Below, one piece after another: positions 3,554 to 31,167 of a DNA stretch of 32,000 bases (position 1 is the stretch's first letter; every line of letters begins with the position of its first letter). The notes below the pieces were generated by a model. The model worked only from the letters and a program-made list of their open reading frames with translations, was not told where the DNA came from and did not search any database. The translations under genes and the position numbers were made by a program. The stretch covers positions 60,001-92,000 of the forward strand of contig NZ_AP018160.1 of NCBI RefSeq assembly GCF_004296515.1, given 5' to 3'. Source of the stretch: Candidatus Saccharimonadota bacterium. Lineage in GTDB: Bacteria; Pseudomonadota; Gammaproteobacteria; Enterobacterales; Enterobacteriaceae.

Positions 3554-4117
3554 TTAAATTTTTAATAAATCTTTCTCTTTATTTTTAATTAAATCATCTA
3601 TATATGTTATATATTTATTAACTTTATCAGTAAAAAATTTATTGTATTTATTAAACTCATCTTCACTTATTTCTTTATTATTTTTTAAATTTTTTATTTT
3701 ATTATTAAAATCTCTTCTTATGTTTCTTATATAAATTTTATTTTTTTCAGAATTTTCTTTAATAATTTTAATTATTTTTATTCTTTTTTCTTCAGTTATA
3801 TCAGAACATACTATTTTTATGTAAGATTCATTACATACATAAACTTTTAAATCTAAATTAGAATCTAATATACAATTTTTTATTTTTTCTAATAAATTTT
3901 TATCAAATGGATTTAAAATTAAAGTTTTAGAATTTTCTTTTGTTATTAATGACAATTTATTTAATTCTTCTATATTATTAAGGTATTTAATTTTTAATTT
4001 ACTTATTAAATTTACAGATATTTTACCAATATTTATATTATCAATATATTTATTAAAATTTTTTATTAAATTATTTATCTTTATATCAGATTCATTAAAA
4101 ATATCTATATTTTTCAT
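3554..4117 (-). CDS. frr: Ribosome recycling factor
   Basis: The 187-aa ORF has the expected size (E. coli 185 aa) and lies between tsf and uppS. It has the Frr-like charged C-terminal half (..IRNIRRDFNNKIKNL..EISEDE..). Confidence 0.85.
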   Translation of the reverse strand: MKNIDIFNESDIKINNLIKNFNKYIDNINIGKISVNLISKLKIKYLNNIEELNKLSLITKENSKTLILNPFDKNLLEKIKNCILDSNLDLKVYVCNESYIKIVCSDITEEKRIKIIKIIKENSEKNKIYIRNIRRDFNNKIKNLKNNKEISEDEFNKYNKFFTDKVNKYITYIDDLIKNKEKDLLKI

Positions 4118-8522: not shown

Positions 8523-8559
8523 TACATTTCCTTACTTAAAAACGAAGTAAGGAAATGTA
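8523..8559. terminator. Perfect 15-bp inverted repeat (stem 8523-8537 / 8545-8559, 7-nt loop) between convergent glnS and the small ORF
   Basis: tacatttccttactt-aaaaacg-aagtaaggaaatgta is read directly from the sequence. It has 5 G:C pairs in an otherwise nearly G/C-free context, with a T-rich tract downstream on the + strand. It overlaps the last codons of ORF 8532-8801. Confidence 0.5.
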
Positions 8560-8801
8560 TCTATTTCATTAATTTTTTTATTTTTACTAAATTTTTCTAT
8601 ATATAAATTATATTCATCTTTATTTTCAAGAAACAATATATCTTTAGGTATTTTTATATAAAAATTTTTATCTTTATTATATTTTAATATAAGTTTGAAA
8701 TCTTTTAAATTTCTATAATTTAATACTCTATTAAAATTTATATAAGAAAAAGATACTTTAGGATATAAAAAAAACATTATACTAATTAAATATTTATACA
8801 T
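8532..8801 (-). CDS. Hypothetical small protein (89 aa) with a hydrophobic, signal-peptide-like N-terminus
   Basis: An open frame of 89 codons lies in a genome where random frames close quickly, 28 bp downstream of the porin gene on the same strand. The N-terminus is MYKYLISIMFFLYPKVSFS. I recognise no homolog and the RBS is weak. Confidence 0.35.
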   Translation of the reverse strand: MYKYLISIMFFLYPKVSFSYINFNRVLNYRNLKDFKLILKYNKDKNFYIKIPKDILFLENKDEYNLYIEKFSKNKKINEIDTFPYFVFK

Positions 8802-13133: not shown

Positions 13134-13592
13134 TTAATTGATTATAATAGAGCTTATAACAGAACTTATTATTATACAAATAATTTCATTAGTATAAAAA
13201 TTAATATAGTTTAATTTTATTAAATTTAAAATTTTAAATATTAATAATTTACTTATAAAAGTTATTATATTATAAATAGTTATTAATTTAAATTTATCAA
13301 TATATTTATTATTATTAAATATAAATATATTATTTTTAATAAAAAAATCAGAAATAATTATAGTAATTAATTCTATACATAATATATTATAAAAAATTAA
13401 ATCTTTTAAAATACTTATTATAAATATATATATATATTTATAATTTAATTTACTATTATTAATTAAATTTATAATATATATTTTAAATAAATTATATATT
13501 ATTAAATTTAATAATATATAATTTATACAATAATTTGATACTAATATATTTAATAATATAGATATAAATATTTTTAATAAAATAAATATCAT
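13134..13592 (-). CDS. mreD: Rod shape-determining protein MreD (putative)
   Basis: The 152-aa ORF is very hydrophobic and multi-spanning, with the size and position of MreD. Its ATG overlaps the mreC stop by 4 nt. The assignment rests mainly on synteny with mreB-mreC. Confidence 0.7.
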   Translation of the reverse strand: MIFILLKIFISILLNILVSNYCINYILLNLIIYNLFKIYIINLINNSKLNYKYIYIFIISILKDLIFYNILCIELITIIISDFFIKNNIFIFNNNKYIDKFKLITIYNIITFISKLLIFKILNLIKLNYINFYTNEIICIIISSVISSIIIN

Positions 13593-14434
13593 TTTAAAAT
13601 AACTATATAATTTATATTATTTATATTAAATAATGTTTTTATTTCTATATCTAAATAATAGTTATTTTTATTTTTTATTATTTTTGATATATAACCTACT
13701 GGATAATTTTTTGGATATAAATCATCAAGTCCAGATGAAACTAGTAAATCTCCTTCTTTAAAATCATCTGTATTATTTAATATGATATTAAAATTTTTAC
13801 ATAAAAGAATTCCATTTATTCCAGATCCTTTAGCTATAAAAATAATTCCATTTCTTGAATTTTTTAAAGATATTTTAGATTTAGATTTATATATTAAATT
13901 AACATAACTATTATTTTTATTAGATAATGAAATATATCCTATTATTCCATCATAATTTAATACAGGTTGACCTATATGTATATTTTCATCAATTCCTTTA
14001 TCTATTATTAATCTAGAAAATACATGATTATAATATAATATTTTAGAAATATTATATTTATACTTTTTTAATATATTTATATTTAATATTTTTTTTAATT
14101 CTATATTTTCTTTTTTACAATTTTCATATTCTAATTTATTTATTTTATCTGAAATAATTTTTTTATTTAAATTATCATTTATATTTATTAATTTTTTATT
14201 TAAAATAAATACATCTTTAATATTTTTAAAAAAATTTTCTATATATATAATTGGATTATATATAAAATAATATATACAATTAGTTAATTCTTTTTTAATT
14301 TTAATATTTAAATTATTTTCAATATAGTCAAATATTAATATAGTTAAAATCAAAACAAATAAAAATAAATATAAAATATATTTAAATTTATTTTTATTTT
14401 TCGTATTATTGTAATAATAATTATTCTTCATCAA
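13589..14434 (-). CDS. mreC: Rod shape-determining protein MreC
   Basis: The 281-aa ORF has a single N-terminal TM segment, then a coiled-coil-like stretch, then a beta-rich C-terminal region (..[14 protein letters not shown].., ..[22 protein letters not shown]..) as in MreC. Its position between mreB and mreD also fits. Confidence 0.85.
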
Positions 14435-15461
14435 ATAATCCTAAATCATATATATTAACTATTTCTAATGCTTTACCTCCACCTCTTACAACACATGTTA
14501 AAGGATCTTCTGCAATTACTACTGGTATTCCTGTTGCTTTAGTTATTAATTTATTTATATTTTTTAATAAAGCACCTCCTCCAGTTAAAATCATTCCTTT
14601 TTCTAAAATATCAGATGTTAATTCTGGTGGACATTTTTCTAATGCAAACATTATCGCACTAACTATTCCTGATAATGGTTCTTGTAATGCATCCAATATT
14701 TCATTAGAATTTAATTTTATTATTTTTGGAATACCTTCTGCTAAATTTCTACCTCTTATTTCATATTCTTTAGATTCTTTACATGGATAAGCATATCCTA
14801 TATTATGTTTTATTTTTTCAGCAGTAGATTCTCCTATTAATGATCCATAATTTCTTCTTATATAATTTACTATTGATTCATCAAATTTATCTCCACCAAT
14901 CCTTACAGAAGAAGAATATACTATTCCATTTAACGAAATTATAGCAACTTCTGTTGTTCCTCCTCCTATATCTACTACCATGGATCCAGTAGCTTCAGAT
15001 ACAGGTAATCCAGCACCAATAGCAGCTGCCATAGGTTCTTCTATAAGAAATACATCTCTAGCTCCAGCTCCTTGAGCGGATTCTCTTATTGCTCTTCTTT
15101 CTACTTGTGTTGCTCCAACAGGAACACATATTAATACTCTTGGACTTGGTCTTATAAAACTATTACTATGAACTTGTTTTATAAAATATTGAAGCATTTT
15201 TTCTGTTATAAAAAAATCAGCTATAACACCATCTTTTAATGGTCTTATTGTTATTATATTACTAGGAGTTCTTCCTAACATTCTTTTAGCTTCTTGTCCT
15301 ACTGCAGTAATACTTGTATTTCCTGATCTATCTTTTTTTATTGATACAACAGAAGGTTCATTTAATACTATACCTTGATTTTTTACATATATCAATGTAT
15401 TAGCTGTACCTAGATCTATTGATAAATCATTTGAAAAAAAACCTCTAATTTTTTTAAACAT
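14421..15461 (-). CDS. mreB: Rod shape-determining actin homolog MreB
   Basis: The 346-aa ORF begins [26 protein letters not shown].. (E. coli [26 protein letters not shown]..). It stays highly conserved throughout, and the local G+C is visibly higher. Confidence 0.98.
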
Positions 15462-16047: not shown

Positions 16048-16341
16048 TTAATATTTATTTAATAAATAAAAATCTATATGTAATATTTTATTTTTTATTA
16101 AATTGATTTGTATATCTTTTATTTTAGATAAAAAACACAATTCATTTATTTTTATACATATTTCTTTATTTAAATTATCTTTTTCTTTTAAAAAATTTAT
16201 ATCTTTATATTCTATAATAATATTAATTGGTAATATATTTTTTCCATATATAACTGCTAATATTTTATTACTAACTCTTAATTTTTTATTAAGTCTTTTA
16301 TTTTTACATATATTTCTTATTTCAGCACATAATATTAACAT
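16048..16341 (-). CDS. rplY: 50S ribosomal protein L25
   Basis: The 97-aa ORF reads ..LCAEIRNICKNKRLNKKLRVSNKILAVIYGKN.....ILHIDFY.. This parallels E. coli L25 ([32 protein letters not shown]...LQHIDFV). Confidence 0.85.
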   Translation of the reverse strand: MLILCAEIRNICKNKRLNKKLRVSNKILAVIYGKNILPINIIIEYKDINFLKEKDNLNKEICIKINELCFLSKIKDIQINLIKNKILHIDFYLLNKY

Positions 16342-16374: not shown

Positions 16375-17634
16375 TTATTCCCAAACTATTAAATAATAGT
16401 TTTTTTTACCTTTGCATAATAAAGTATATTTATCATATAAAATATCTTTTTTAGTAAAAATATATTTTATAGTATTATTTACTATACCATTTATTTTTAT
16501 AGAATTAGATAAAATAATATTTTTAGCTTCATTATTTGATTTTACAATACTAAATTGTACTATTATTTGTTGTAAATTAATACCTAATTTAACATTAATT
16601 ATTGGAATTCCATCTGTATATAATTGTTTTAAATCTTTTTCATTAAAATTTAAATTACCAGTAAATAAACTATTTGTTATTTTTATAGCAGATTTTAATT
16701 TTTTTTTACCATGTATCATTTCTGTCATTTTTTCTGCTAATAATTTTTTAGCTTTTAATATATTATTATATATATTATTTTTTTCTAAATATTCTATATA
16801 TTCCAAAGATTCATTAGTAAACATTTTTAAATATTTAAAAATTAAATTATCTGATAAATTAATCCAAAATTGATAAAATTTATATGGACTTGTTTTTTTA
16901 TCATCTAGCCATATATTTTCTTTAGAAGATTTACTAAATTTTATTCCATTATTATTAGTTATTATTGGAAAAGTTATTCCATATGTATCTTTATTATGTA
17001 TTTTTTTTATTAAATTTATTCCATATATAATATTATTCCATTGATCTGACCCACCTATTTGTAATTTTGTATTATAATTATTATATAAATATAAAAAATC
17101 ATAACTTTGTAATAAAGTATATGTTAGTTCTGAATATGAAATTTTATTATGTATAATATTATTTTTTATATATTTTCTATTTAATATATTTTTTATAGAA
17201 AATTTTGATCCTATATTATATAAAAAATCAATTATATTTATTTTACTTAACCAATGTTTATTATTTAATATATTTATATTATTATAATTTATATTATTTA
17301 ATAATATATTTTTTAATTGTTTTGATATTTCTATACTATTTTTATTTATAAATATTTCTGTATATTTATTTCTTTTGTTTCCTGTGAAATTTGGATCACC
17401 TATTAATCCAGTAGATCCACCTATTAATATTATAAATTTATTATTTAATTCTATAAATTTATTAATAAAAATTATTAAAATTATATGTCCTATATGTAAA
17501 CTATCAGATGTAGGGTCTATTCCAGAATAAAGCACTATTTTATTTTCATTTAATAAATTATTTAATTTATTTTCATTAACTATTTTTTTTATTAAATTTC
17601 TACTATATAAATGTGTTAATATCTTATTTTTCAT
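16375..17634 (-). CDS. tyrS: Tyrosyl-tRNA synthetase
   Basis: The 419-aa ORF has the class I HIGH motif (..DPTSDSLHIGHII..), a KMSKS-like motif (KFSKS), ..LQIGGSDQWNNI.., and a C-terminal S4-like domain. Confidence 0.93.
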   Translation of the reverse strand: MKNKILTHLYSRNLIKKIVNENKLNNLLNENKIVLYSGIDPTSDSLHIGHIILIIFINKFIELNNKFIILIGGSTGLIGDPNFTGNKRNKYTEIFINKNSIEISKQLKNILLNNINYNNINILNNKHWLSKINIIDFLYNIGSKFSIKNILNRKYIKNNIIHNKISYSELTYTLLQSYDFLYLYNNYNTKLQIGGSDQWNNIIYGINLIKKIHNKDTYGITFPIITNNNGIKFSKSSKENIWLDDKKTSPYKFYQFWINLSDNLIFKYLKMFTNESLEYIEYLEKNNIYNNILKAKKLLAEKMTEMIHGKKKLKSAIKITNSLFTGNLNFNEKDLKQLYTDGIPIINVKLGINLQQIIVQFSIVKSNNEAKNIILSNSIKINGIVNNTIKYIFTKKDILYDKYTLLCKGKKNYYLIVWE

Positions 17635-17663
17635 ATTAATAAATTATATAAATATTTAAATGT

Positions 17664-19910
17664 ATGTATATGAGATTATATTATAATTTTAAGTTATATA
17701 TAATTATTTTTATTATATTAATTATTATTAAATTATATATTATTAAAATTAATAATTTTATAGATGTTAAATTAAAAAATAATAATTTTATAGATAGTAA
17801 TAATATAGTTTATAGTAAAATAATTAATATAAACTGTAAATCAAATTTAAATAAGAAAGATATAATAAATATATTATTGTTATCTAAATATAAAAAAAAA
17901 GATATAGTTAATATTCCTGGAGAATTTTCTATAAATAATAATATTTTAACATTATTTAAAAGATCTTTTAATTTTTACTATGGATATGAAAAAGAAACTA
18001 TATTTAAAATATTTTTTAAAGAAAATAAATTAATAAAAATAAAAAATATAAATGATTTATATGTAGAAAATATAAATATAGATCCTAATATAATATCTAT
18101 AATTAATAATAATAAAAAATATAAATTATTTTTACCTATAAGTAATTTTCCAAAAACATTAATAAATATATTAATAGAAATTGAAGATAAAAATTATTTT
18201 TCACATAATGGAATAAATATTAAATCTATAATAAGAGCAATTATAAAAAATGTATTAAATAAAAAAATAATAGAAGGAGGAAGTACTATAACACAACAAT
18301 TAGTTAAAAACATATTTTTAACTAATAAAAAAAGTTTTTTAAGAAAAATAAATGAGATATTAATATCTATTATTTTAGAATATAAACTTAATAAAGAAAA
18401 AATACTAGAATTATATTTAAATGAAGTTTATTTTGGAAATATTAATAATAAAGAAATTAGAGGATTTCCTTTAGGAAGCATATGTTACTTTGGAAAATTA
18501 ATAAATGAATTAGATATAAACGAACAAGCTTATTTGGTTGGTATGTTAAAAGGATCATCTTTATATAATCCTGTTAGTAATTTTGATTTAGTAAAAATGA
18601 GAAAAAATTTTATTTTAAGTAAGATAAAAGTAAAAAATATTATAGATGAAGAATTATATAATTATTTAATATTAAAAAATAATATTTTTAATAATATTAA
18701 TAATAAAATAAATTATCCATCATTTGTCAATATTGTAAAAAAAGATATTAATAAATTATCTTTAAATAATAAAAATAATTTAAGAATATTTAGTACATTA
18801 AACTTAATTACTCAAAATAATGTTCAAAAATCTATAAATATATCTATTAAAAATTTAAGAAAATTGAATAATAATATAGAAATTTCTATGATAGTTATTG
18901 ATAGAAAAAAAGGATATATAAAATCATCGATAGGAGGTTCTAATTATAATTTTGACGGATATAATAGAATTTTTATGAATAGACAAATAGGTTCGTTAAT
19001 AAAACCATTTATTTATATAAGTGCATTAAATATTCCAAATAAATTTAATCTAAATACTAATTTATTAGATAATAAATTAGAAATAAAATATGATGATAAT
19101 ATATGGTGTCCAAAAAACAATGATAACAAATTTAGAGGAAATGTTACATTAATGGATTCATTAATTTATTCATTAAATATACCAACAATAAATTTGGGAA
19201 TGAATATAGGAATAGATAATATAATAAATAATTTAATAAAATTTGGAATAGATAAAAATACTTTTATAAATAGATTTCCATCTATGCTTATAGGAGCTAT
19301 AAATTTATCATTAATTGATATAGCACAAATATATCAATCTATATCGAATTATGGAAATTTTAATAAATTATCTTCAATAAGATATATAAATGATATTAAT
19401 AATAATATTAAATATATTAATAAAAATAAAAGTATACAAGTTATATCTCCTCAATCATCATATTTAACATTATTTTGTATGAGTAAAATTACTAAAATAG
19501 GAACAGCAAGTATGTTAAATAAAAATTTTAATAATATAAATATTTTAGGGAAAACAGGTACAACTAATAAATTAAAAGATAGTTGGTTTGTTGGAATAGA
19601 TAATAATGAAATTTGTGTTATATGGGTAGGTAATGATAATAATTCTTCTATTAATTTAAATAAATTAAATAATGCATTACATGTATATGAAAATTATCTA
19701 AAAATTAGTAATCCAGAAAGTTTTAATTTAATTAAACCTAATGATATATATGAAATAAATATAGATAAATTAGGAAATTTTTTATGTAATAATCATTATG
19801 ATTGTAATAAAATACCTATTTGGATAAAAAATCCTTATGAAATATATAATAATTGTCCTAAACATTCTTTTATTATCAAAATTATAAAAAAACTAATTAA
19901 TTTTAATTAA
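17664..19910 (+). CDS. mrcB: Bifunctional class A penicillin-binding protein, PBP1B-like (glycosyltransferase + transpeptidase)
   Basis: The 748-aa ORF has an N-terminal TM segment and a roughly 100-aa insert before the GT51 domain (UB2H-like position). GT motifs are EDKNYFSHNG, GGSTITQQLVKN and RKINE. It has ..IRGFPLGSICYFGK..EQAYLVGMLKGSSLYNP.. as in E. coli PBP1b. Transpeptidase motifs are SLIK (SxxK), SLN (SxN) and KTGTT (KTG). Confidence 0.9.
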   Translation: MYMRLYYNFKLYIIIFIILIIIKLYIIKINNFIDVKLKNNNFIDSNNIVYSKIININCKSNLNKKDIINILLLSKYKKKDIVNIPGEFSINNNILTLFKRSFNFYYGYEKETIFKIFFKENKLIKIKNINDLYVENINIDPNIISIINNNKKYKLFLPISNFPKTLINILIEIEDKNYFSHNGINIKSIIRAIIKNVLNKKIIEGGSTITQQLVKNIFLTNKKSFLRKINEILISIILEYKLNKEKILELYLNEVYFGNINNKEIRGFPLGSICYFGKLINELDINEQAYLVGMLKGSSLYNPVSNFDLVKMRKNFILSKIKVKNIIDEELYNYLILKNNIFNNINNKINYPSFVNIVKKDINKLSLNNKNNLRIFSTLNLITQNNVQKSINISIKNLRKLNNNIEISMIVIDRKKGYIKSSIGGSNYNFDGYNRIFMNRQIGSLIKPFIYISALNIPNKFNLNTNLLDNKLEIKYDDNIWCPKNNDNKFRGNVTLMDSLIYSLNIPTINLGMNIGIDNIINNLIKFGIDKNTFINRFPSMLIGAINLSLIDIAQIYQSISNYGNFNKLSSIRYINDINNNIKYINKNKSIQVISPQSSYLTLFCMSKITKIGTASMLNKNFNNINILGKTGTTNKLKDSWFVGIDNNEICVIWVGNDNNSSINLNKLNNALHVYENYLKISNPESFNLIKPNDIYEINIDKLGNFLCNNHYDCNKIPIWIKNPYEIYNNCPKHSFIIKIIKKLINFN

Positions 19911-19923
19911 ATTATTTTAATAA

Positions 19924-21129
19924 ATGATAAAAATTACAGATTTAATAGTTAAAAAAATAATAAAAAATGAATTTATATCTATTAAAATTATAGTTGTATT
20001 AAATAATAAATTTGTTGGAATATCATTAATGCCTATTGAGTCAGATATTATATATAATAATTTTTATATTAAAAATATATTTAATTCTTTAAATTTAAAA
20101 GCTTCTATGTGTATTAAATTTATTAAAAATGTAATATATAATAATATAGTAGGTAAAGATCCTAGTTTACAATATGAAATTGATAATTTATTATTTTTAA
20201 TAAATAAAAAATTTGATAATTTATTTTTTAAAAAAATAATATTAACTGTATCAATTTCAATAGCTAGATCTTATTCAAATTATAAAAAAATAAAATTACA
20301 TGAATTAATATCTGAATTAAGTAATAATAATAATAATAAAAAACCAAATTTAATATTAAATATATTTAATAAAAATAATAAAAATATACTATGTAATTAT
20401 TTAGATATAAAAAATTTTATGTTAGAATTAAATAGTAATATATTTTTATTAGAAAATTTATATTATATAAATTTAATTTATAAGAAATTAATAAATAAAT
20501 TAAATAAAATATATAATAAATATTTAAATATAAATAATAAAATTAATAGTAATATAATTCTTTATGAAATAAATGATTTAATATATAAATCTGTTTTATA
20601 TAATAATAATAATATAAATATAGGAATAGATTTATCAGCATCTGATTTATATAATGAACATAATGATTTTTATTTTTTAAATGAAAAAAATAAAGTAATA
20701 AGTAATTGTGAATTTATAGAATATATAGAAAATTTATTAAATATGTATTCTATATCTTATATAGAGAATTCATCTCATAAATATGATTGGAAATTATCTT
20801 ATATACAAACTGAAATTTTTGGTAATAAATTAAAATTAGTTGGAGATTCTATATTTAATAATGATTTATTTTTAATAGAACAAGGAATTAAACATAATAT
20901 ATGTAATTCAATATTAATAAAATATTATAATATGAGTACTTTTAGTGAAATAATAAATATTTGTAATTTAGTAAAAAAATATAATTACAAAATAATAATT
21001 TCTAATATATTCAGAGATATAGATGATTTATTTTTTATAGATTTAGCTTTAGGAATATCTTCAGATTATATAAAAATAGGTTATATTTATAATTTTAATT
21101 TATATAAAAATTTAATTTTAAATAAATGA
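19924..21129 (+). CDS. eno: Enolase homolog, highly divergent; several canonical catalytic residues appear substituted (possible pseudoenzyme)
   Basis: The 401-aa ORF is colinear with E. coli enolase: FVGISLMP/FVGMAAAP, GKDPSLQYEIDNL/GKDAKDQAGIDKI, IDLSASD/MDCAASE, YIENS..YDW/SIEDG..SDW, KLKLVGDSIF/KIQLVGDDLF, NSILIKYYN/NSILIKFNQ, YIKIGY/QIKTGS. See findings for the residue-level analysis. Confidence 0.75.
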   Translation: MIKITDLIVKKIIKNEFISIKIIVVLNNKFVGISLMPIESDIIYNNFYIKNIFNSLNLKASMCIKFIKNVIYNNIVGKDPSLQYEIDNLLFLINKKFDNLFFKKIILTVSISIARSYSNYKKIKLHELISELSNNNNNKKPNLILNIFNKNNKNILCNYLDIKNFMLELNSNIFLLENLYYINLIYKKLINKLNKIYNKYLNINNKINSNIILYEINDLIYKSVLYNNNNINIGIDLSASDLYNEHNDFYFLNEKNKVISNCEFIEYIENLLNMYSISYIENSSHKYDWKLSYIQTEIFGNKLKLVGDSIFNNDLFLIEQGIKHNICNSILIKYYNMSTFSEIINICNLVKKYNYKIIISNIFRDIDDLFFIDLALGISSDYIKIGYIYNFNLYKNLILNK

Positions 21130-21821
21130 TATATAATTTTTACATAAATTTAAATTTATGTAAAAAAAATTATTTTATATTTAATAATTATAATATATTT
21201 AATAGGAAAATTTATAATATAAATATTAATAATATATTTAATTTTAATAAATATTTATTTTTATATAAAATAAAACCTAAAAATAATTTAGAATATATTT
21301 CAAAAATAGTAAAAGTTAATACTAAAAAATTAATTTATATAAATAATATAAAATATCCTTATTTATTAAATAAAAAATTTATAAAAATATATAAATATAA
21401 TAATTTGTTATTGAATTTATTAGAATTAGTATATGTTAATTTTTTAAAAAATATAAATATATTTAAATATATTTATATTTTTAATAAATTTAATATTAGT
21501 ATAATTAAATATAATGTTTATATAAATGAATTTAATTGTTTATCAAATAATAGTTTTAAATATAAAAATAAATATAATGGTATTTTTATATATGGAAAAT
21601 ATAATAGTGATATAATTTCGTTATATAATGGTAAAATTTTATATTATAATAATTTTAATAAAAAATATTATATTTTAGTAATAAAGCATGTAAATAATTT
21701 AATTAGTATTTATATTAATAGTAAAAAATTTTTAGTTAAAAAAAATTGTTTTGTTTTAAAAAAACAAAAAATATCAACTATAGGTATGAATAATAAATTT
21801 TATTTTGAAATAATAAAATAA
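21126..21821 (+). CDS. nlpD: LysM + LytM (M23-like) domain protein, NlpD-like amidase activator
   Basis: The 231-aa ORF has a LysM-like segment, YKIKPKNNLEYISKIVKVNTKKLIYINNIKYPYLLNKKFIKI (E. coli NlpD [43 protein letters not shown]). The C-terminal GIFIYGKYNSDIISLYNGKILYYNN..KKYYILVIKHVNNLISIYINS....KKQKISTIG..NKFYFEI aligns with NlpD [47 protein letters not shown]...KAGQKIATMG..TRLHFEI. Its ATG overlaps the eno stop (ATGA). Confidence 0.7.
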   Translation: MIYNFYINLNLCKKNYFIFNNYNIFNRKIYNININNIFNFNKYLFLYKIKPKNNLEYISKIVKVNTKKLIYINNIKYPYLLNKKFIKIYKYNNLLLNLLELVYVNFLKNINIFKYIYIFNKFNISIIKYNVYINEFNCLSNNSFKYKNKYNGIFIYGKYNSDIISLYNGKILYYNNFNKKYYILVIKHVNNLISIYINSKKFLVKKNCFVLKKQKISTIGMNNKFYFEIIK

Positions 21822-21921
21822 ATAAAATTAAATTTTTATTTTTAAAGTAATGTTTTATATATGTTATAATTCATATATTAATTTAATTTATAAATAATTT
21901 ATATAATTATTTGAGGTAAAA

Positions 21922-23829
21922 ATGAGTAAAATAATTGGTATTGATTTAGGTACAACTAATTCTTGTGTTGCTATAATTGAAGGAAATAAACCTCGTGTTT
22001 TAGAAAATAGTGAAGGAGATCGTACAACTCCATCAATAGTTGCATATACAAGTAATAATGAAGTATTAATAGGTAAACCTGCTAAAAGACAATCTATAAC
22101 AAATCCTAAAAATACATTATTTGCTATAAAAAGATTGATTGGTCGTAAATATGATGATACTGAAATTCAAAAAGATATAAATTTAATGCCATATAAAATA
22201 ATAAAATCTGATAATGGAGATGCATGGATAGAAATAAATAATAAAAAAATAGCACCTCCTCAAATATCAGCAGAAATATTAAAAAAAATGAAAAAAACTG
22301 CTGAGGATTATTTAAATGAAAGTGTAAGTGAAGCTGTTATAACAGTACCTGCATATTTTAATGATACACAAAGACAAGCTACAAAAGATGCTGGTAAAAT
22401 AGCTGGATTAGAAGTAAAAAGAATAATAAATGAACCAACAGCAGCAGCTTTAGCTTATGGATTAGATAAAAAAACTGAAAATTCTATTATAGCTGTATAT
22501 GATTTAGGTGGAGGTACTTTTGATATTTCCATAATAGAAATAGATGATGTAGATGGTGAAAAAACATTTGAAGTTTTATCTACTAATGGTGATACTCATT
22601 TAGGTGGAGAAGATTTTGATAATAATATAATAAGATATTTAGTTAATGAATTTAAAAAAGATAATAATATAGATTTATATAATGATCCTCTTGCTATGCA
22701 AAGACTAAAAGATTCTTCTGAAAAAGCTAAAATAGAATTATCATCATCACAACAAACTGAAATAAATTTACCATATATTACTGCTAATGAATCTGGTCCA
22801 AAACATATGAATTATAAAATAACTAGATCTAAATTAGAATCTTTAGTTGAAAATTTAGTTAATAAAACAATAGATCCTGTTAAATTAGCTTTAAAAGATG
22901 CTAATATATCTATATCTGATGTAAAAGATATAATATTAGTTGGTGGTCAAACAAGAATGCCTCTTGTTCAAAAAATAGTTTCAGAATTTTTTAATAAAGA
23001 AGTTAGAAAAGATGTAAATCCAGACGAAGCTGTTGCAATTGGTGCTGCTATACAAGGTGGAGTTTTATCTGGAAATGTTAAAGATTTATTATTATTAGAT
23101 GTAACACCTTTATCATTAGGTATAGAAACTATGGGAGGAATAATGACAACTTTAATACCTAAAAATACAACTATTCCTACAAAACATAGTCAAGTATTTT
23201 CTACTGCTGAAGATAATCAATCTGCAGTTACTATACATGTATTACAAGGAGAAAGAAAAAAATCAATCGATAATAAATCTTTAGGACAATTTAATTTAGA
23301 TGGAATAACTCCTTCTATGAGAGGTATACCTCAGATAGAAGTTACATTTGATATAGATTCAGATGGTATATTACATGTTTCTGCTAAAGATAAGAATAGT
23401 GGTAAAGAACAAAAAATAACTATTCAAGCTTCTTCTGGATTAAGCGATAGTGAAATTAAAAATATGATACATGAAGCAGAAGTAAATTCAGAATTAGATA
23501 AAAAATTTGAAGAATTAACACAATTAAAAAATCAAGCAGATCAAATAATACATGGAACAAAAAAACAATTAAATGAAGTAAAAGATATAATTTCATCTGA
23601 AGAAAAAGAAAATATAGAAAAACATGTACAAGAATTAGAAAATTCATTAAAAGAAGAAGATAAAAACAATATAGAAAATAAAATAAAATCACTTATACAA
23701 GTATCTAGTAAGTTATTTGAATTATCAAAAAAAAATAATAAAGAAGTAAATGAAGATAATAAAATTAATTCTAATAATGAAACTATTGATGCAGATTTTG
23801 AAGAAATAAAAGAAGATAAAAAATCTTAA
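21922..23829 (+). CDS. dnaK: Molecular chaperone DnaK (Hsp70)
   Basis: The 635-aa ORF begins [17 protein letters not shown].. and has ..[13 protein letters not shown].. and ..VGGQTRMP.. It is very highly conserved, with a GAGG Shine-Dalgarno upstream. Confidence 0.99.
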
Positions 23830-26157: not shown

Positions 26158-27480
26158 ATGTTTTTAAGTACATTAAATATAAAAAATATTTTTATAAATT
26201 TTTTTAAAGAAAAAGATCATTTAGAAATAGAAAGTAGTTCTTTAATACCTAAAAATGATAGTAGTATATTATTTACTAATTCTGGAATGAATCAATTTAA
26301 AAATATTTTTTTAGGAATAGAAAAACCAATATATAATAAAATTGTTACTATACAAAGATGTTTAAGAGCTGGAGGTAAAGATAATGATTTAAGTAAAGTT
26401 GGATACTCTTCTAGACATCATACATTTTTTGAAATGTTAGGAAATTTTAGTTTTAATAGTTACTTTAAAAAAAGTAGTATAGAGTACGCATGGGAATTAT
26501 TAACTAATAAAAATTTTTTTAATATATCTGAAAATAGATTAATTGTTACAGTATATTATAATGATATAGAATCTTATAATATTTGGAATAAAAATATAGG
26601 TATATCTAAAAAAAAAATATTTAAAATAGGAGATAAAAATAATAGAAAATATATATCTGACAATTTTTGGAGTATGAGTGAATTTGGTCCTTGTGGTCCT
26701 AGTTCTGAAATATTTTGTAATATTAATAAAAATAATTGTAATTATAATTTAAATTTAAATAAAATTAGTGATGAATATATAGAAATATGGAATTTAGTTT
26801 TTATTCAATTTAATAAATGTAAAAATAATAATTTAACTGAATTACCATATTTTTCTGTAGATACTGGAATGGGTTTAGAAAGAATATCTTCAATAATACA
26901 AGAAGTAGATTCAAACTATAAAATAGATTTATTTAAAGACTTAATTAATAAGTTAAGAAAAAAATTAAATATAAAATATAATAATATTATTTCATTAAAA
27001 ATTATAGCTGATCATTTAAGATCATGTATATTTTTAATATCTGATGGAATATATCCATCTAATGATAAACATGGATATGTATTAAAAAAAATAATAAGAA
27101 GATCTATATATCATGGAAAATTATTAGGTGTAAATTTCCCATTTTTATATAAAATAATTGATTTTATAGATGATAATATAAAATATTTTTATACATATAA
27201 TATAAATATAGATTTTAATTTAATAAAAAATATAATTTATTTAGAAGAATGTAAATTTGAAAATTCTATAAATAAAGGTTTAATAATTTTAAATAAAAAA
27301 ATAGATGAAGGTAATACTTTTATAGATGGAGATTTTATTTTTTTATTATATGATACATATGGTTTACCAATCGAAATAATAAATGAAGTTTGTAATATAA
27401 AAAATATTAATTTTGATAATAAAAAATTTAATAAATTATTAGATTTTCAAAAAAATAAATCTAATTCAAGTAAAAAATAA
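26158..27480 (+). CDS. alaS: Alanyl-tRNA synthetase, catalytic N-terminal half only (440 aa; editing and C-Ala domains absent)
   Basis: ..SSSLIPKNDSSILFTNSGMNQFKNIFLG..IQRCLRAGGKDNDLSKVGYSSRHHTFFEMLGNFSF.. and ..FSVDTGMGLERISSIIQ..IADHLRSC.. match E. coli AlaRS residues 1 to about 460. The ORF ends (..LYDTYGLPIEIINEVCNIKNINFDNKKFNKLLDFQKNKSNSSKK*) at the position equivalent to about residue 460 of the 876-aa E. coli enzyme. tRNA-Ser starts 20 nt later. Confidence 0.92.
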   Translation: MFLSTLNIKNIFINFFKEKDHLEIESSSLIPKNDSSILFTNSGMNQFKNIFLGIEKPIYNKIVTIQRCLRAGGKDNDLSKVGYSSRHHTFFEMLGNFSFNSYFKKSSIEYAWELLTNKNFFNISENRLIVTVYYNDIESYNIWNKNIGISKKKIFKIGDKNNRKYISDNFWSMSEFGPCGPSSEIFCNINKNNCNYNLNLNKISDEYIEIWNLVFIQFNKCKNNNLTELPYFSVDTGMGLERISSIIQEVDSNYKIDLFKDLINKLRKKLNIKYNNIISLKIIADHLRSCIFLISDGIYPSNDKHGYVLKKIIRRSIYHGKLLGVNFPFLYKIIDFIDDNIKYFYTYNINIDFNLIKNIIYLEECKFENSINKGLIILNKKIDEGNTFIDGDFIFLLYDTYGLPIEIINEVCNIKNINFDNKKFNKLLDFQKNKSNSSKK

Positions 27481-27500
27481 AATAAATTATATTTTTTTAG

Positions 27501-27583
27501 GATGAGGTGGCCGAGTGGATTAAGGCGTTCCCCTGCTAAGGGAATATATATTTATATCAAGGGTTCGAATCCCTTCCTCATCG
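27501..27583 (+). tRNA. tRNA-Ser (anticodon GCU)
   Basis: gatgaggtggccgagtggattaaggcgttcccctgctaagggaatatatatttatatcaagggttcgaatcccttcctcatcg has anticodon arm ttccc/ctGCTaa/gggaa, a long all-A/T variable arm and G73. It resembles E. coli serV and keeps the serV-argV position after alaS. No CCA is encoded. Confidence 0.9.
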
Positions 27584-27585
27584 AA

Positions 27586-27659
27586 GCATTCGTAGCTCAG
27601 AATGGAAGAGCACTCGGCTACGAACCGAGAGGTCGTAGGTTCGAATCCTTCCGAATGCA
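27586..27659 (+). tRNA. tRNA-Arg (anticodon ACG)
   Basis: gcattcgtagctcagaatggaagagcactcggctacgaaccgagaggtcgtaggttcgaatccttccgaatgca has anticodon arm ctcgg/ctACGaa/ccgag. It resembles E. coli argV and lies only 2 nt after tRNA-Ser. The T stem has one U.U mismatch. No CCA is encoded. Confidence 0.9.
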
Positions 27660-27722
27660 AAATTAAAAATTTATTGCAAAAATAATTTAATTTTATTAAT
27701 ATATTTATAATCTATATTATAT

Positions 27723-27795
27723 GCCGATATAGCTCAGTTGGTAGAGCAACTGATTTGTAATCAGTATGTCAAAGGTTCGAATCCTTTTATCGGCT
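27723..27795 (+). tRNA. tRNA-Thr (anticodon UGU)
   Basis: gccgatatagctcagttggtagagcaactgatttgtaatcagtatgtcaaaggttcgaatccttttatcggct has anticodon arm actga/ttTGTaa/tcagt. It is the first member of a thrU-tyrU-glyT-thrT-tufB-like operon. No CCA is encoded. Confidence 0.92.
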
Positions 27796-27797
27796 TA

Positions 27798-27821
27798 TTT
27801 TTTTTTTTTTTTTTTTTTTTT
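27798..27821 (+). repeat. Homopolymer T24 filling the tRNA-Thr / tRNA-Tyr spacer
   Basis: Counted directly from the sequence: 24 consecutive T from 27798 to 27821, ending immediately before nucleotide +1 (G27822) of tRNA-Tyr. Confidence 0.95.
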
Positions 27822-27904
27822 GGTGAGATTCCTGAGTGGTTAAAAGGGACAGACTGTAAATCTGTTGTTGAAAAACTTCGAAGGTTCAAATCCTTCTCTC
27901 ACCA
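27822..27904 (+). tRNA. tRNA-Tyr (anticodon GUA)
   Basis: ggtgagattcctgagtggttaaaagggacagactgtaaatctgttgttgaaaaacttcgaaggttcaaatccttctctcacca has anticodon arm acaga/ctGTAaa/tctgt, a long variable arm and A73. It resembles E. coli tyrU. No additional CCA follows the discriminator. Confidence 0.9.
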
Positions 27905-27916
27905 TATTTAAACATT

Positions 27917-27987
27917 GCGAACATAGTATAAAGGTATTATTTTAGTTTTCCAAACTAATGATATGGGTTCGATTCCCATTGTTCGCT
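27917..27987 (+). tRNA. tRNA-Gly (anticodon UCC)
   Basis: gcgaacatagtataaaggtattattttagttttccaaactaatgatatgggttcgattcccattgttcgct has anticodon arm ttagt/ttTCCaa/actaa and U73, as in E. coli glyT. No CCA is encoded. Confidence 0.9.
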
Positions 27988-27997
27988 AAAAAATTTT

Positions 27998-28072
27998 GCT
28001 GATATAGCTCAGTAGGTTTAGAGTACACCCTTGGTAAGGGTGTGGTCGGCAGTTCGAATCTGCCTATCAGCA
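27998..28072 (+). tRNA. tRNA-Thr (anticodon GGU)
   Basis: gctgatatagctcagtaggtttagagtacacccttggtaagggtgtggtcggcagttcgaatctgcctatcagca has anticodon arm caccc/ttGGTaa/gggtg. It is near-identical to E. coli thrT outside the D loop. No CCA is encoded. Confidence 0.92.
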
Positions 28073-28101
28073 TTTTTATTAAATTTAATATGGTTAATAA
28101 A

Positions 28102-30135: not shown

Positions 30136-30567
30136 ATGAAAAATAAAATAGACTTTTATATAAAATTTCAAATTCCTTCTCAAGAAGCTAGTCCAAATCC
30201 TTCTATAGGATCTGTATTAGGTCAAAGAGGTATAAATATTATTGAATTTTGTAAAGATTTTAATGATAAAACTAAAAACATTGAAAAAGGATTATTAATT
30301 TCTGTTATAGTAAATATTTATTCAGATAAAACTTTTTTATTATCTATAAAATCTCCTGTTACATCTTTTTTATTAAAAAAAGAATTAAATATTAATTTAG
30401 GATCTAAAAATCCAGGTAAAGATTTTATAGGGTCTATAAGTATGGATAAAATAAATAATATATCTAATTTAAAATTTAAATATATGAATGGATATGATAT
30501 TGATTCTATAAATAAATCTATAATAGGAACCGCTAAATCTATGGGTATAAAAATAATAAATGATTAA
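30136..30567 (+). CDS. rplK: 50S ribosomal protein L11
   Basis: The 143-aa ORF has ..IKFQIPSQEASPNPSIGSVLGQRGINIIEFCKDFNDKTK.. matching E. coli L11 ..[38 protein letters not shown].. Confidence 0.95.
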   Translation: MKNKIDFYIKFQIPSQEASPNPSIGSVLGQRGINIIEFCKDFNDKTKNIEKGLLISVIVNIYSDKTFLLSIKSPVTSFLLKKELNINLGSKNPGKDFIGSISMDKINNISNLKFKYMNGYDIDSINKSIIGTAKSMGIKIIND

Positions 30568-30654
30568 TATTATTAAAATTTAATTAAATATTACAAATAT
30601 ATTAATTAAACAAATTATAATATATAAATAAATAAAATAATTTAATTAAATATA

Positions 30655-31167
30655 ATGAAAATAAAAAATATTGAATATAAAAAAAATATAGTATTAAATC
30701 TAAATGAATTATTAAAACATAAAATTTTATCTTTGATATTAATTAATCCTACTTATTTAAGTTTTAATGACTTAATATATATTAGAAAAAATGTTATTAG
30801 TAAAAAATTAAATTTATTTATGATAAAAAATTCTTTACTTAAAAAATCAATAGTAAATACTAAATTTAATTTTATAGAAAAATATGCTAATGGACCAAAT
30901 ATGATTTTATATTTTTATGAATATAATATAATTGATTATGTAAAAAAAATAATTTCTTTTTTTAAAAATAAAAATTTAAATAATATAAAATTAATATTTG
31001 TTGAAAATAGAATTTTTGTTGAATCTAAAATAGATTATTTACATAATTTAATATCATTTGAAAATTCTATAAAAAAAATTATATTTATTTTAAATAAAAT
31101 ATCTATAATTAACTTATTAAAAATTTTTAATTTTATAAAAAAAATAAAACATGAAGAGGAAATTTAA
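30655..31167 (+). CDS. rplJ: 50S ribosomal protein L10
   Basis: The 170-aa ORF lies directly upstream of rplL (TAA then ATG with no spacer). It has an L10-like pattern: ..LIYIRKNVISKKLNLFMIKNSLLKKSI.. vs E. coli ..[27 protein letters not shown].., and ..GPNMILY.. vs ..GPTLIAY.. Confidence 0.85.
   Translation: MKIKNIEYKKNIVLNLNELLKHKILSLILINPTYLSFNDLIYIRKNVISKKLNLFMIKNSLLKKSIVNTKFNFIEKYANGPNMILYFYEYNIIDYVKKIISFFKNKNLNNIKLIFVENRIFVESKIDYLHNLISFENSIKKIIFILNKISIINLLKIFNFIKKIKHEEEI

Follow-up and report, generated by a model that had tools for sequence, protein, structure and literature searches.

The Nardonella endosymbiont of Pachyrhynchus infernalis (Pin) carries a full-length, deeply eroded gene for enolase (eno), one of the most highly conserved of all proteins. 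The gene is the open reading frame (ORF) at positions 19924 to 21129, plus strand, of a 32,000-nucleotide stretch of the Pin genome (NCBI RefSeq contig NZ_AP018160.1, positions 60,001 to 92,000). This whole stretch is referred to below as the window. Most catalytic residues of the encoded protein have been replaced, two sister symbionts have deleted the gene from the same site, and the frame has stayed open far beyond what neutral decay allows. The best reading is that this is the vertically inherited eno of Nardonella Pin at a late stage of reductive evolution. On balance, its product is probably a translated, catalytically dead remnant with an enolase fold, kept by weak selection that disfavors truncation, misfolding or polar effects in the operon, and heading for loss.

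Nardonella is a tyrosine-provisioning symbiont of weevils with genomes of 0.2 Mb (PMC11984157), and a review describes it as stripped of nearly every metabolic pathway but those for tyrosine and peptidoglycan synthesis (PMC12176269). A literature search, which did not cover the Anbutsu 2017 genome paper, found no paper that ties Nardonella to enolase or describes its glycolysis genes. The analysis covered about 42 kb of the 226-kb Pin genome, namely the window and a stretch with rpoB, rpoC, rpsL, rpsG and fusA.

Identification of the ORF as an enolase homolog

NCBI annotates the product of ORF 19924-21129 as a "hypothetical protein" [endosymbiont of Pachyrhynchus infernalis]. This protein is encoded on two complete Candidatus Nardonella records of about 226 kb. 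No stop interrupts the frame (its two forward alternatives hold 70 and 88), and its 401 amino acids (aa) compare with 153 aa for the longest clearly spurious ORF of the window. Its GC content is 11.6%; that of the window ranges from 10 to 29% per kb.

Profile searches place the ORF in the enolase family. Pfam Enolase_C matches with 87.8 bits (E value 1e-24), above its gathering score of 21.5. Enolase_N reaches 18.3 bits, under its gathering score of 35, and the NCBIfam equivalog model TIGR01060 (eno) gives 133.9 bits, short of its cut-off of 300. With phmmer, the top match in the Protein Data Bank (PDB) is E. coli enolase (2.7e-28). A hidden Markov model (HMM) built here from a panel of 58 bona fide, catalytically intact enolases gives 153.6 bits for the ORF and 606.7 bits for E. 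coli enolase. The match is not an artefact of composition, since the highest score among 500 shuffled versions of the ORF was 5.0 bits. A MAFFT alignment shows the ORF to be colinear with enolase from Met1 and over residues 1-390, and its identity to E. coli enolase is 26%. By full-length sequence homology the ORF belongs to the enolase family; of the two Pfam gathering scores only that of Enolase_C is exceeded, and the equivalog cut-off is not. An earlier reading of the sequence alone had described a full-length, colinear enolase homolog, and the Pfam, TIGR01060, PDB and panel-HMM matches and the alignment bear this out.

Features of the eno ORF (positions in the window):

19924..21129, plus strand: eroded eno, probable ortholog; 401 codons, ATG to TGA; HMM and alignment evidence
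19924..20340, plus strand: remnant Enolase N-terminal domain, approximately residues 1-139; 18.3 bits to Enolase_N, colinear from Met1
20050-20052, plus strand: S42 of the Mg-II loop, now I43; the loop is replaced by PIESDII (alignment)
20380-20382, plus strand: H159 replaced by K153, within "NKNNKN...DIKNFM" (20380..20415)
20410-20415, plus strand: Q167 replaced by K163 and E168 by N164, within the same "NKNNKN...DIKNFM"
20509..20559, plus strand: shortened Asn/Lys-rich segment in place of the GDEGGY loop; E209 deleted (alignment)
20629..20631, plus strand: D236, equivalent to Mg ligand D246, kept (GAT)
20764..20769, plus strand: E281, equivalent to Mg ligand E290, kept (GAG); adjacent D291 replaced by N282
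20845..20850, plus strand: D308, equivalent to Mg ligand D317, kept; D318 replaced by S309
20920..20922, plus strand: K333, equivalent to catalytic base K342, kept (AAA)
20988, plus strand: synonymous TAC/TAT change at Tyr355, relative to strain AP036057
21004..21012, plus strand: phosphate-binding triad H370/R371/S372 replaced by N361/I362/F363
21073..21075, plus strand: K384, equivalent to K393, kept (AAA)

Loss of active-site residues

Active-site positions were mapped from E. coli to ORF numbering in a MAFFT alignment of 91 sequences. The E. coli reference sequence in this alignment is consistent with the HMMER alignment of the PDB match. The three Mg-I ligands are kept (D246 as D236, E290 as E281, D317 as D308), as are the base K342 (K333) and K393 (K384). 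Both residues of the E209/E168 pair are lost: the GDEGGY loop bearing the general acid E209 falls in a six-residue gap, the local segment IYNKYLNINNKINSNII (residues 196-212) contains no D or E, and E168 has become N164 next to K163 for Q167. None of the residues that bind the second Mg or the phosphate survives, S42 having become I43, H159 K153, H370 N361, R371 I362 and S372 F363. Beside two of the kept Mg ligands, D291 is replaced by N282 and D318 by S309. The C-terminus is approximately 25 residues shorter than that of E. coli enolase.

The product is therefore a pseudoenzyme in the sense of an enzyme homolog without essential catalytic residues. Because the E209 loop, E168 and all the phosphate and second-Mg residues are gone, dehydration of 2-phosphoglycerate by this protein appears very unlikely from its residues. 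The sequence-only reading had drawn up by eye the same five retained residues (D246, E290, D317, K342 and K393) and a list of substituted motifs. The alignment confirmed both item by item, including the E209 loop without an acidic residue, and it placed no Glu, His, Ser or Arg at the equivalents of E168, E209, H159, S42 or H370-S372.

Predicted fold

AlphaFold2 run with a 51-sequence family alignment gave a model with a predicted local distance difference test (pLDDT) score of 89.1 and a predicted template modeling (pTM) score of 0.89. The top 50 Foldseek matches of this model were all enolases, with template modeling (TM) scores of 0.77-0.84, and the model shows the two-domain enolase architecture. 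The fold is a homology-based inference, because the single-sequence model had a pLDDT of only 35. By the family-alignment model, the protein has probably kept two domains folded as in enolase. Profile HMMs and a structure prediction had been proposed beforehand as checks on the gene; the enolase profiles match, Enolase_N only below its threshold, and the predicted model is enolase-like.

Extent and pattern of erosion

Family-invariant columns were taken to be those with at least 90% conservation among bona fide enolases, 59 in all. Of these the ORF retains 20 (34%), so that 66% have changed; 4 of 17 are kept in the N-domain and 16 of 42 in the barrel. Among the 12 catalytic positions, five are kept (42%) and seven are gone. 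Since catalytic positions are kept at 42% and invariant columns at 34%, the loss is not specific to the catalytic site. The erosion is general across the protein and the active site has not been specifically dismantled. Overall retention at conserved sites is 5/8 for D and 2/4 for E.

The eno ORF is far more eroded than the genome background. This follows from its score of 0.32 bits per model position (TIGR01060), compared with 1.3-1.9 for dnaK, recA, tufA and gyrA in the same window, and from the scores of neighboring enzymes, which lie near or above their equivalog cut-offs: uppS 305 (cut-off 110), map 314 (171), glnS 629 (426), tyrS 313 (114) and mrcB 685 (718), the last just under. An ordinary enolase would be grouped with dnaK, recA, tufA and gyrA in score per position. 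The PBP1B motifs EDxxFxxHxG, RKxxE, SxxK, SxN and KTG are readable in the mrcB translation. The intact neighboring enzymes reported from the sequence alone are thus recovered, with mrcB marginal by score. Two thirds of the invariant sites have been replaced, which contradicts the suggestion from the same source that the loss of function might be very recent.

Several presumably essential genes of the window also score under their NCBIfam equivalog cut-offs: frr (3554-4117), mreC (13589-14434), rplY (16048-16341), rplJ (30655-31167) and, marginally, mrcB (17664-19910). A sub-threshold score alone is therefore no mark of a dead gene here.

Tests against neutral decay

The GC content at the three codon positions (GC1/GC2/GC3) is 0.174/0.144/0.030 for eno and 0.200/0.198/0.043 for tyrS; mrcB is similar to eno. 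AT-biased substitution on eno was simulated and the probability that no stop arises was tracked; indels were ignored, which makes the estimate conservative. At 66% of residues replaced, the share seen at the invariant columns, the probability of an open frame is 1e-25 to 1e-46, depending on the parameters, and it is already 1e-2 at 10% replaced. The sequence-only reading had argued that a frame of 401 codons was kept open beyond chance, and a neutral probability of at most 1e-25 agrees with this.

Avoidance of stops was modeled separately, with a 61-codon Markov model in which ancestral codons were drawn from genome usage and time was fitted to the observed retention. The replacements in the ORF have a mean BLOSUM62 score of -0.35, compared with -0.96 +/- 0.18 under this null (P<=0.002), and the hydropathy correlation at changed columns is r 0.51-0.53, compared with 0.26-0.36. 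Retention exceeds the expectation of the null for Gly, Asp, Pro, Ala and Ser and falls short of it for Lys, Asn and Leu. Two features of the comparison limit how these values are to be read: the alignment optimises similarity, and one rate is applied to all sites. The open frame, the GC periodicity and the conservative replacements in combination indicate that the eno product is translated and weakly constrained at the protein level.

Joint retention of the three acidic Mg ligands has a probability of ~0.03 under the mutational null and of ~0.2 given the overall retention of D (5/8) and E (2/4). Special conservation of the Mg triad was rejected, as it is not significant once the overall Asp/Glu retention is taken into account.

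Comparison with other Nardonella genomes and relatives

Sister genomes were found through DnaK and PBP1B searches: the Nardonella of Euscepes postfasciatus (AP018159) and of Sipalinus gigas (AP018162). The flanks tyrS-mrcB and dnaK-dnaJ-recA-alaS-tufA are colinear between the window and both sister genomes. In the Euscepes symbiont an AT-rich gap of 297 bp separates mrcB from dnaK, and in the Sipalinus symbiont ftsB lies between the two; both genomes lack eno and nlpD there. These two symbionts have deleted eno cleanly at the syntenic site. The function of eno is dispensable in the genus, because the gene is deleted in both.

The window was also compared with the 2018 strain AP036057. Over the 21 kb compared there is one substitution, the synonymous change at 20988 inside eno. 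At 27811, in the poly-T spacer between tRNA-Thr and tRNA-Tyr, the window is longer by 11 T.

Searched exhaustively with HMMER, 1.84 billion representatives yielded nothing above 99 bits besides the ORF itself. Of ten enolase-family hits whose clusters were inspected, all of them high-scoring, AT-rich or multiply substituted, none is labelled Nardonella; their labels are SAR11-type, Hepatoplasma and generic "enolase", and the rest are metagenome proteins. These searches found no other Nardonella enolase and no ortholog above ~30% identity.

Gene orders elsewhere suggest an ancestral setting for the Pin gene. In an unrelated 232,667-bp symbiont contig (L011, Logan SRR26629861) the order is mrcB-erpA-pyrG-ftsB-...-nlpD, and in a free-living bacterium (L002) it is pyrG-kdsA-eno-ftsB. 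The ancestral order was probably mrcB...(pyrG)-eno-ftsB...nlpD. The position of the Pin ORF between mrcB and an nlpD-like gene fits both orders, and its best PDB match is the enolase of E. coli. In L011 eno is deleted between pyrG and ftsB, where a 40-bp gap is left, a parallel loss of enolase; L011 also carries pdh, panBC, folK and gshA.

Some candidates were rejected. Apparent remnants of eno, nlpD and ftsB in the sister loci, obtained with tblastn without composition correction, were noise produced by composition. A PBP1B scan of genome contigs gave only unrelated Bacteroidota and Bacilli loci (L004-L006), and the DnaK-based contigs L007, L008, L014 and L015 and the PBP1B-based contigs L011-L013 are not Nardonella. 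Without composition-based statistics, tblastn gives E values down to 1e-12 between unrelated proteins of the Pin genome, and similarity searches in this genome therefore need composition correction or profiles.

The eno locus and the downstream nlpD-like gene

Features around eno (positions in the window):

17664..19910, plus strand: mrcB (PBP1B), upstream, 13 bp before the eno start; synteny anchor
21126..21129, plus strand: ATGA overlap, the eno TGA being fused to the nlpD-like start
21126..21821, plus strand: very degenerate NlpD/LytM-like ORF, 231 aa; Peptidase_M23 36.3 bits
21922..23829, plus strand: dnaK, downstream synteny anchor

The stop/start overlap of eno with an nlpD-like ORF, pointed out from the sequence alone, is real. 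The nlpD-like ORF scores far under the cut-offs of the NlpD and ActS models. It is more degenerate than eno, with 7.3% GC, 74% N/K/I/Y/F and GC1/GC2/GC3 of 0.095/0.091/0.034, and is still open over 231 codons. Together, eno and the nlpD-like ORF form a pair retained specifically in Pin.

No terminator-like sites were found in 17400-22100, in a scan that is uninformative at this AT content, and the 78 promoter-like sites found, compared with 81 expected, are equally uninformative. No rne was found in the ~42 kb of the Pin genome covered.

Other gene-content differences

The window differs from the two sister genomes at several other loci, for which the Euscepes and Sipalinus coordinates refer to loci L009 and L010, respectively. 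The gene for L1, rplA, is absent from the rplKAJL cluster of Pin, where a gap at 30568-30654 separates rplK (30136-30567) from rplJ (30655-31167); it is present in the Euscepes (L009 19735-20421) and Sipalinus (L010 18582-19274) symbionts. Between mrcB and dnaK, ftsB (DivIC) is found in the Sipalinus symbiont (L010 9628-9894), and none is detectable at this site in Pin (19911-21921) or in the Euscepes symbiont. The alaS gene (26158-27480) encodes 440 aa that cover positions 1-430 of the 847-position TIGR00344 model, that is, the catalytic half only; alaS has the same shortened length in both sister symbionts and in L011. It is followed by csrA in the Euscepes (L009 16549-16722) and Sipalinus (L010 15471-15641) symbionts and not in Pin, where six genes for tRNAs (Ser, Arg, Thr, Tyr, Gly, Thr) occupy the interval 27481-28073.

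Upstream, 13134-15461 contains mreB, mreC and an ORF of 152 aa without a family match that is probably mreD by position. The mreBC genes are present in the Euscepes symbiont, and the Sipalinus symbiont has no such block between ssb and aroQ (L010 4587-5639). Only the Euscepes symbiont has folD between aroQ and rplY. On the minus strand, 8532-8801 is an ORF of 89 aa in the interval between glnS and an OmpC-like porin gene, with no NCBIfam match; the Sipalinus symbiont has an ORF of 105 aa without a Pfam match at the same porin-adjacent position (L010 464-781).

Interpretation

A sequence of events that would account for the Pin gene begins with metabolism. Nardonella may have become a factory for tyrosine precursors, with central metabolites presumably supplied by the host cell, and selection for 2-phosphoglycerate dehydration would have lapsed. 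The E209 loop, E168, the second-Mg Ser loop, H159, the H370-S372 site and two thirds of the invariant residues were lost. Transcription of eno together with mrcB and the nlpD-like gene would continue, as would its translation. By the statistical tests, weak purifying selection against truncation and radical replacement appears to persist, most likely because the cell would pay for a truncated or misfolded product or for polar effects on the downstream gene that overlaps eno. Such a gene is destined for deletion, an outcome that two sister lineages have already reached, and no specific new function is needed.

Several observations weigh against this interpretation. Gly, Asp and Pro are kept above the mutational expectation, and none of the three Mg ligands and neither lysine has been lost. 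The confident structural model leans on an alignment of real enolases. A useless gene would be expected to be deleted under a strong deletional bias, yet this frame has remained open through a very long divergence.

In a rival reading the protein would be a pseudoenzyme with a selected non-catalytic job in the Pachyrhynchus lineage only, as a scaffold or partner, for example in a degradosome-like complex with RNase E. This is unlikely. The frame has stayed open against overwhelming odds, with constraint at the amino-acid level and codon-position periodicity, an enolase fold is predicted, and E. coli enolase has been solved in complex with RNase E (2fym, 5ohg). Set against this are the deletion of eno in two other Nardonella genomes and a uniform erosion of invariant columns in which no spared patch was identified; the C-terminal helix and the N-domain, both of which contribute to the dimer, are the most degraded parts of the protein. 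Taken more broadly, a specific non-glycolytic purpose in the Pachyrhynchus lineage, whether as scaffold or partner or as a repurposed Mg-dependent enzyme acting on a non-phosphorylated carboxylate of the tyrosine or cell-wall economy, seems rather doubtful. In the latter version the enolate core D236/E281/D308 with K333 and K384 would have been kept and phosphate binding discarded. That the product might still be an enzyme at all, either an aberrant enolase or a repurposed one that keeps the enolate-forming half-reaction, is very improbable. All five of these residues are indeed kept, and the joint retention of the acidic ligands is at the ~0.03 level under the mutational null, but the triad is unremarkable (~0.2) against overall D/E retention, the AAA codons of the lysines are favored by AT pressure, and seven catalytic positions are gone. 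In yeast enolase the single mutations E168Q, E211Q or K345A each reduce activity ~1e5-fold, which also counts against an active enzyme.

Selection could instead act on the openness of the frame alone, with the protein irrelevant, by protecting the overlapping nlpD-like gene and possibly dnaK-dnaJ through translational coupling or polarity. The ATGA overlap, the 13-bp gap after mrcB, the lack of a terminator-like site in the region scanned and the presence of a NusG gene nearby are compatible with this, as is the tolerance of clean deletions in the sister genomes, since nonsense mutations would be polar. It is nonetheless distinctly unlikely: replacements are more conservative and hydropathy is better preserved than stop avoidance predicts, GC1 and GC2 are five times GC3, and the nlpD-like gene to be protected is strongly degenerate too, and the sister genomes do without it. 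A neutral pseudogene or annotation artefact that is open by chance would fit the NCBI label and the score under the equivalog cut-off. It is scarcely credible in view of the open-frame probabilities, which are low even at 10% replacement, the persisting coding periodicity, and the identity of two independently sequenced strains but for one synonymous change.

The catalytically dead, weakly constrained remnant is therefore preferred. With the gene deleted in two related symbionts, Pin eno is better described as a snapshot of gene erosion than as a demonstrated new function. The sequence-only reading had proposed a pseudoenzyme kept for something other than 2-phosphoglycerate dehydration. Its first half stands, in that most catalytic residues are gone and the frame and replacements reject neutrality; a specific retained role is unsupported, and the deletions in the Euscepes and Sipalinus symbionts weaken it.

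Relation to known systems and significance

Compared with canonical enolase (EC 4.2.1.11; E. coli Eno 1e9i, 3h8a, 6bfy), the Pin ORF is alike in length class, colinearity, predicted fold of N-domain and TIM barrel, and neighborhood logic and in the Mg-I ligands, K342 and K393. It differs in the E209 loop, E168, H159, S42 and H370-S372, in its shorter C-terminus and in 66% of the invariant columns. Enolases that serve as binding partners through the same fold, as in the degradosome (2fym, 5ohg), the Csm/AcrIIIA2-enolase complex (9no4) and the RibD-enolase complex (9no2), are catalytically intact, unlike the Pin ORF; a role of this type is what the sequence-only reading had suggested as one possibility.

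Full-length enolase-family hits from metagenomes offer another comparison. Among 90 such proteins, 32 are missing one or more of the 12 catalytic residues, and in several the number missing is 6-9. P0124, P0079, P0105 and P0035 resemble the Pin ORF in being full-length with 6-9 of the 12 missing; they have no relation to Nardonella, their composition is not extreme, and many also lose Mg ligands that are kept in Pin. Together with P0078, P0022 and others, these four may be unexplored enolase-like pseudoenzymes or paralogs.

Eroded but intact genes have been described for Carsonella, Hodgkinia and Tremblaya. Those cases resemble Pin eno in their tiny AT-rich genomes, in open frames that have lost conserved or catalytic residues, and in lineage-specific presence or absence among sister symbionts. 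Pin eno is a new example of this known gene erosion in minimal symbiont genomes, and it differs from the earlier cases in that its losses are recorded residue by residue, neutral decay is rejected quantitatively and sister genomes show deletions at the syntenic site. It provides a natural case for asking what keeps functionless-looking genes in minimal genomes, whether misfolding cost, operon polarity or hidden functions. The phosphoenolpyruvate used by the shikimate pathway and by MurA in Nardonella probably does not come from the symbiont's own enolase. This bears on the metabolic integration of weevil host and symbiont and leaves the accepted picture of Nardonella biology unchanged.

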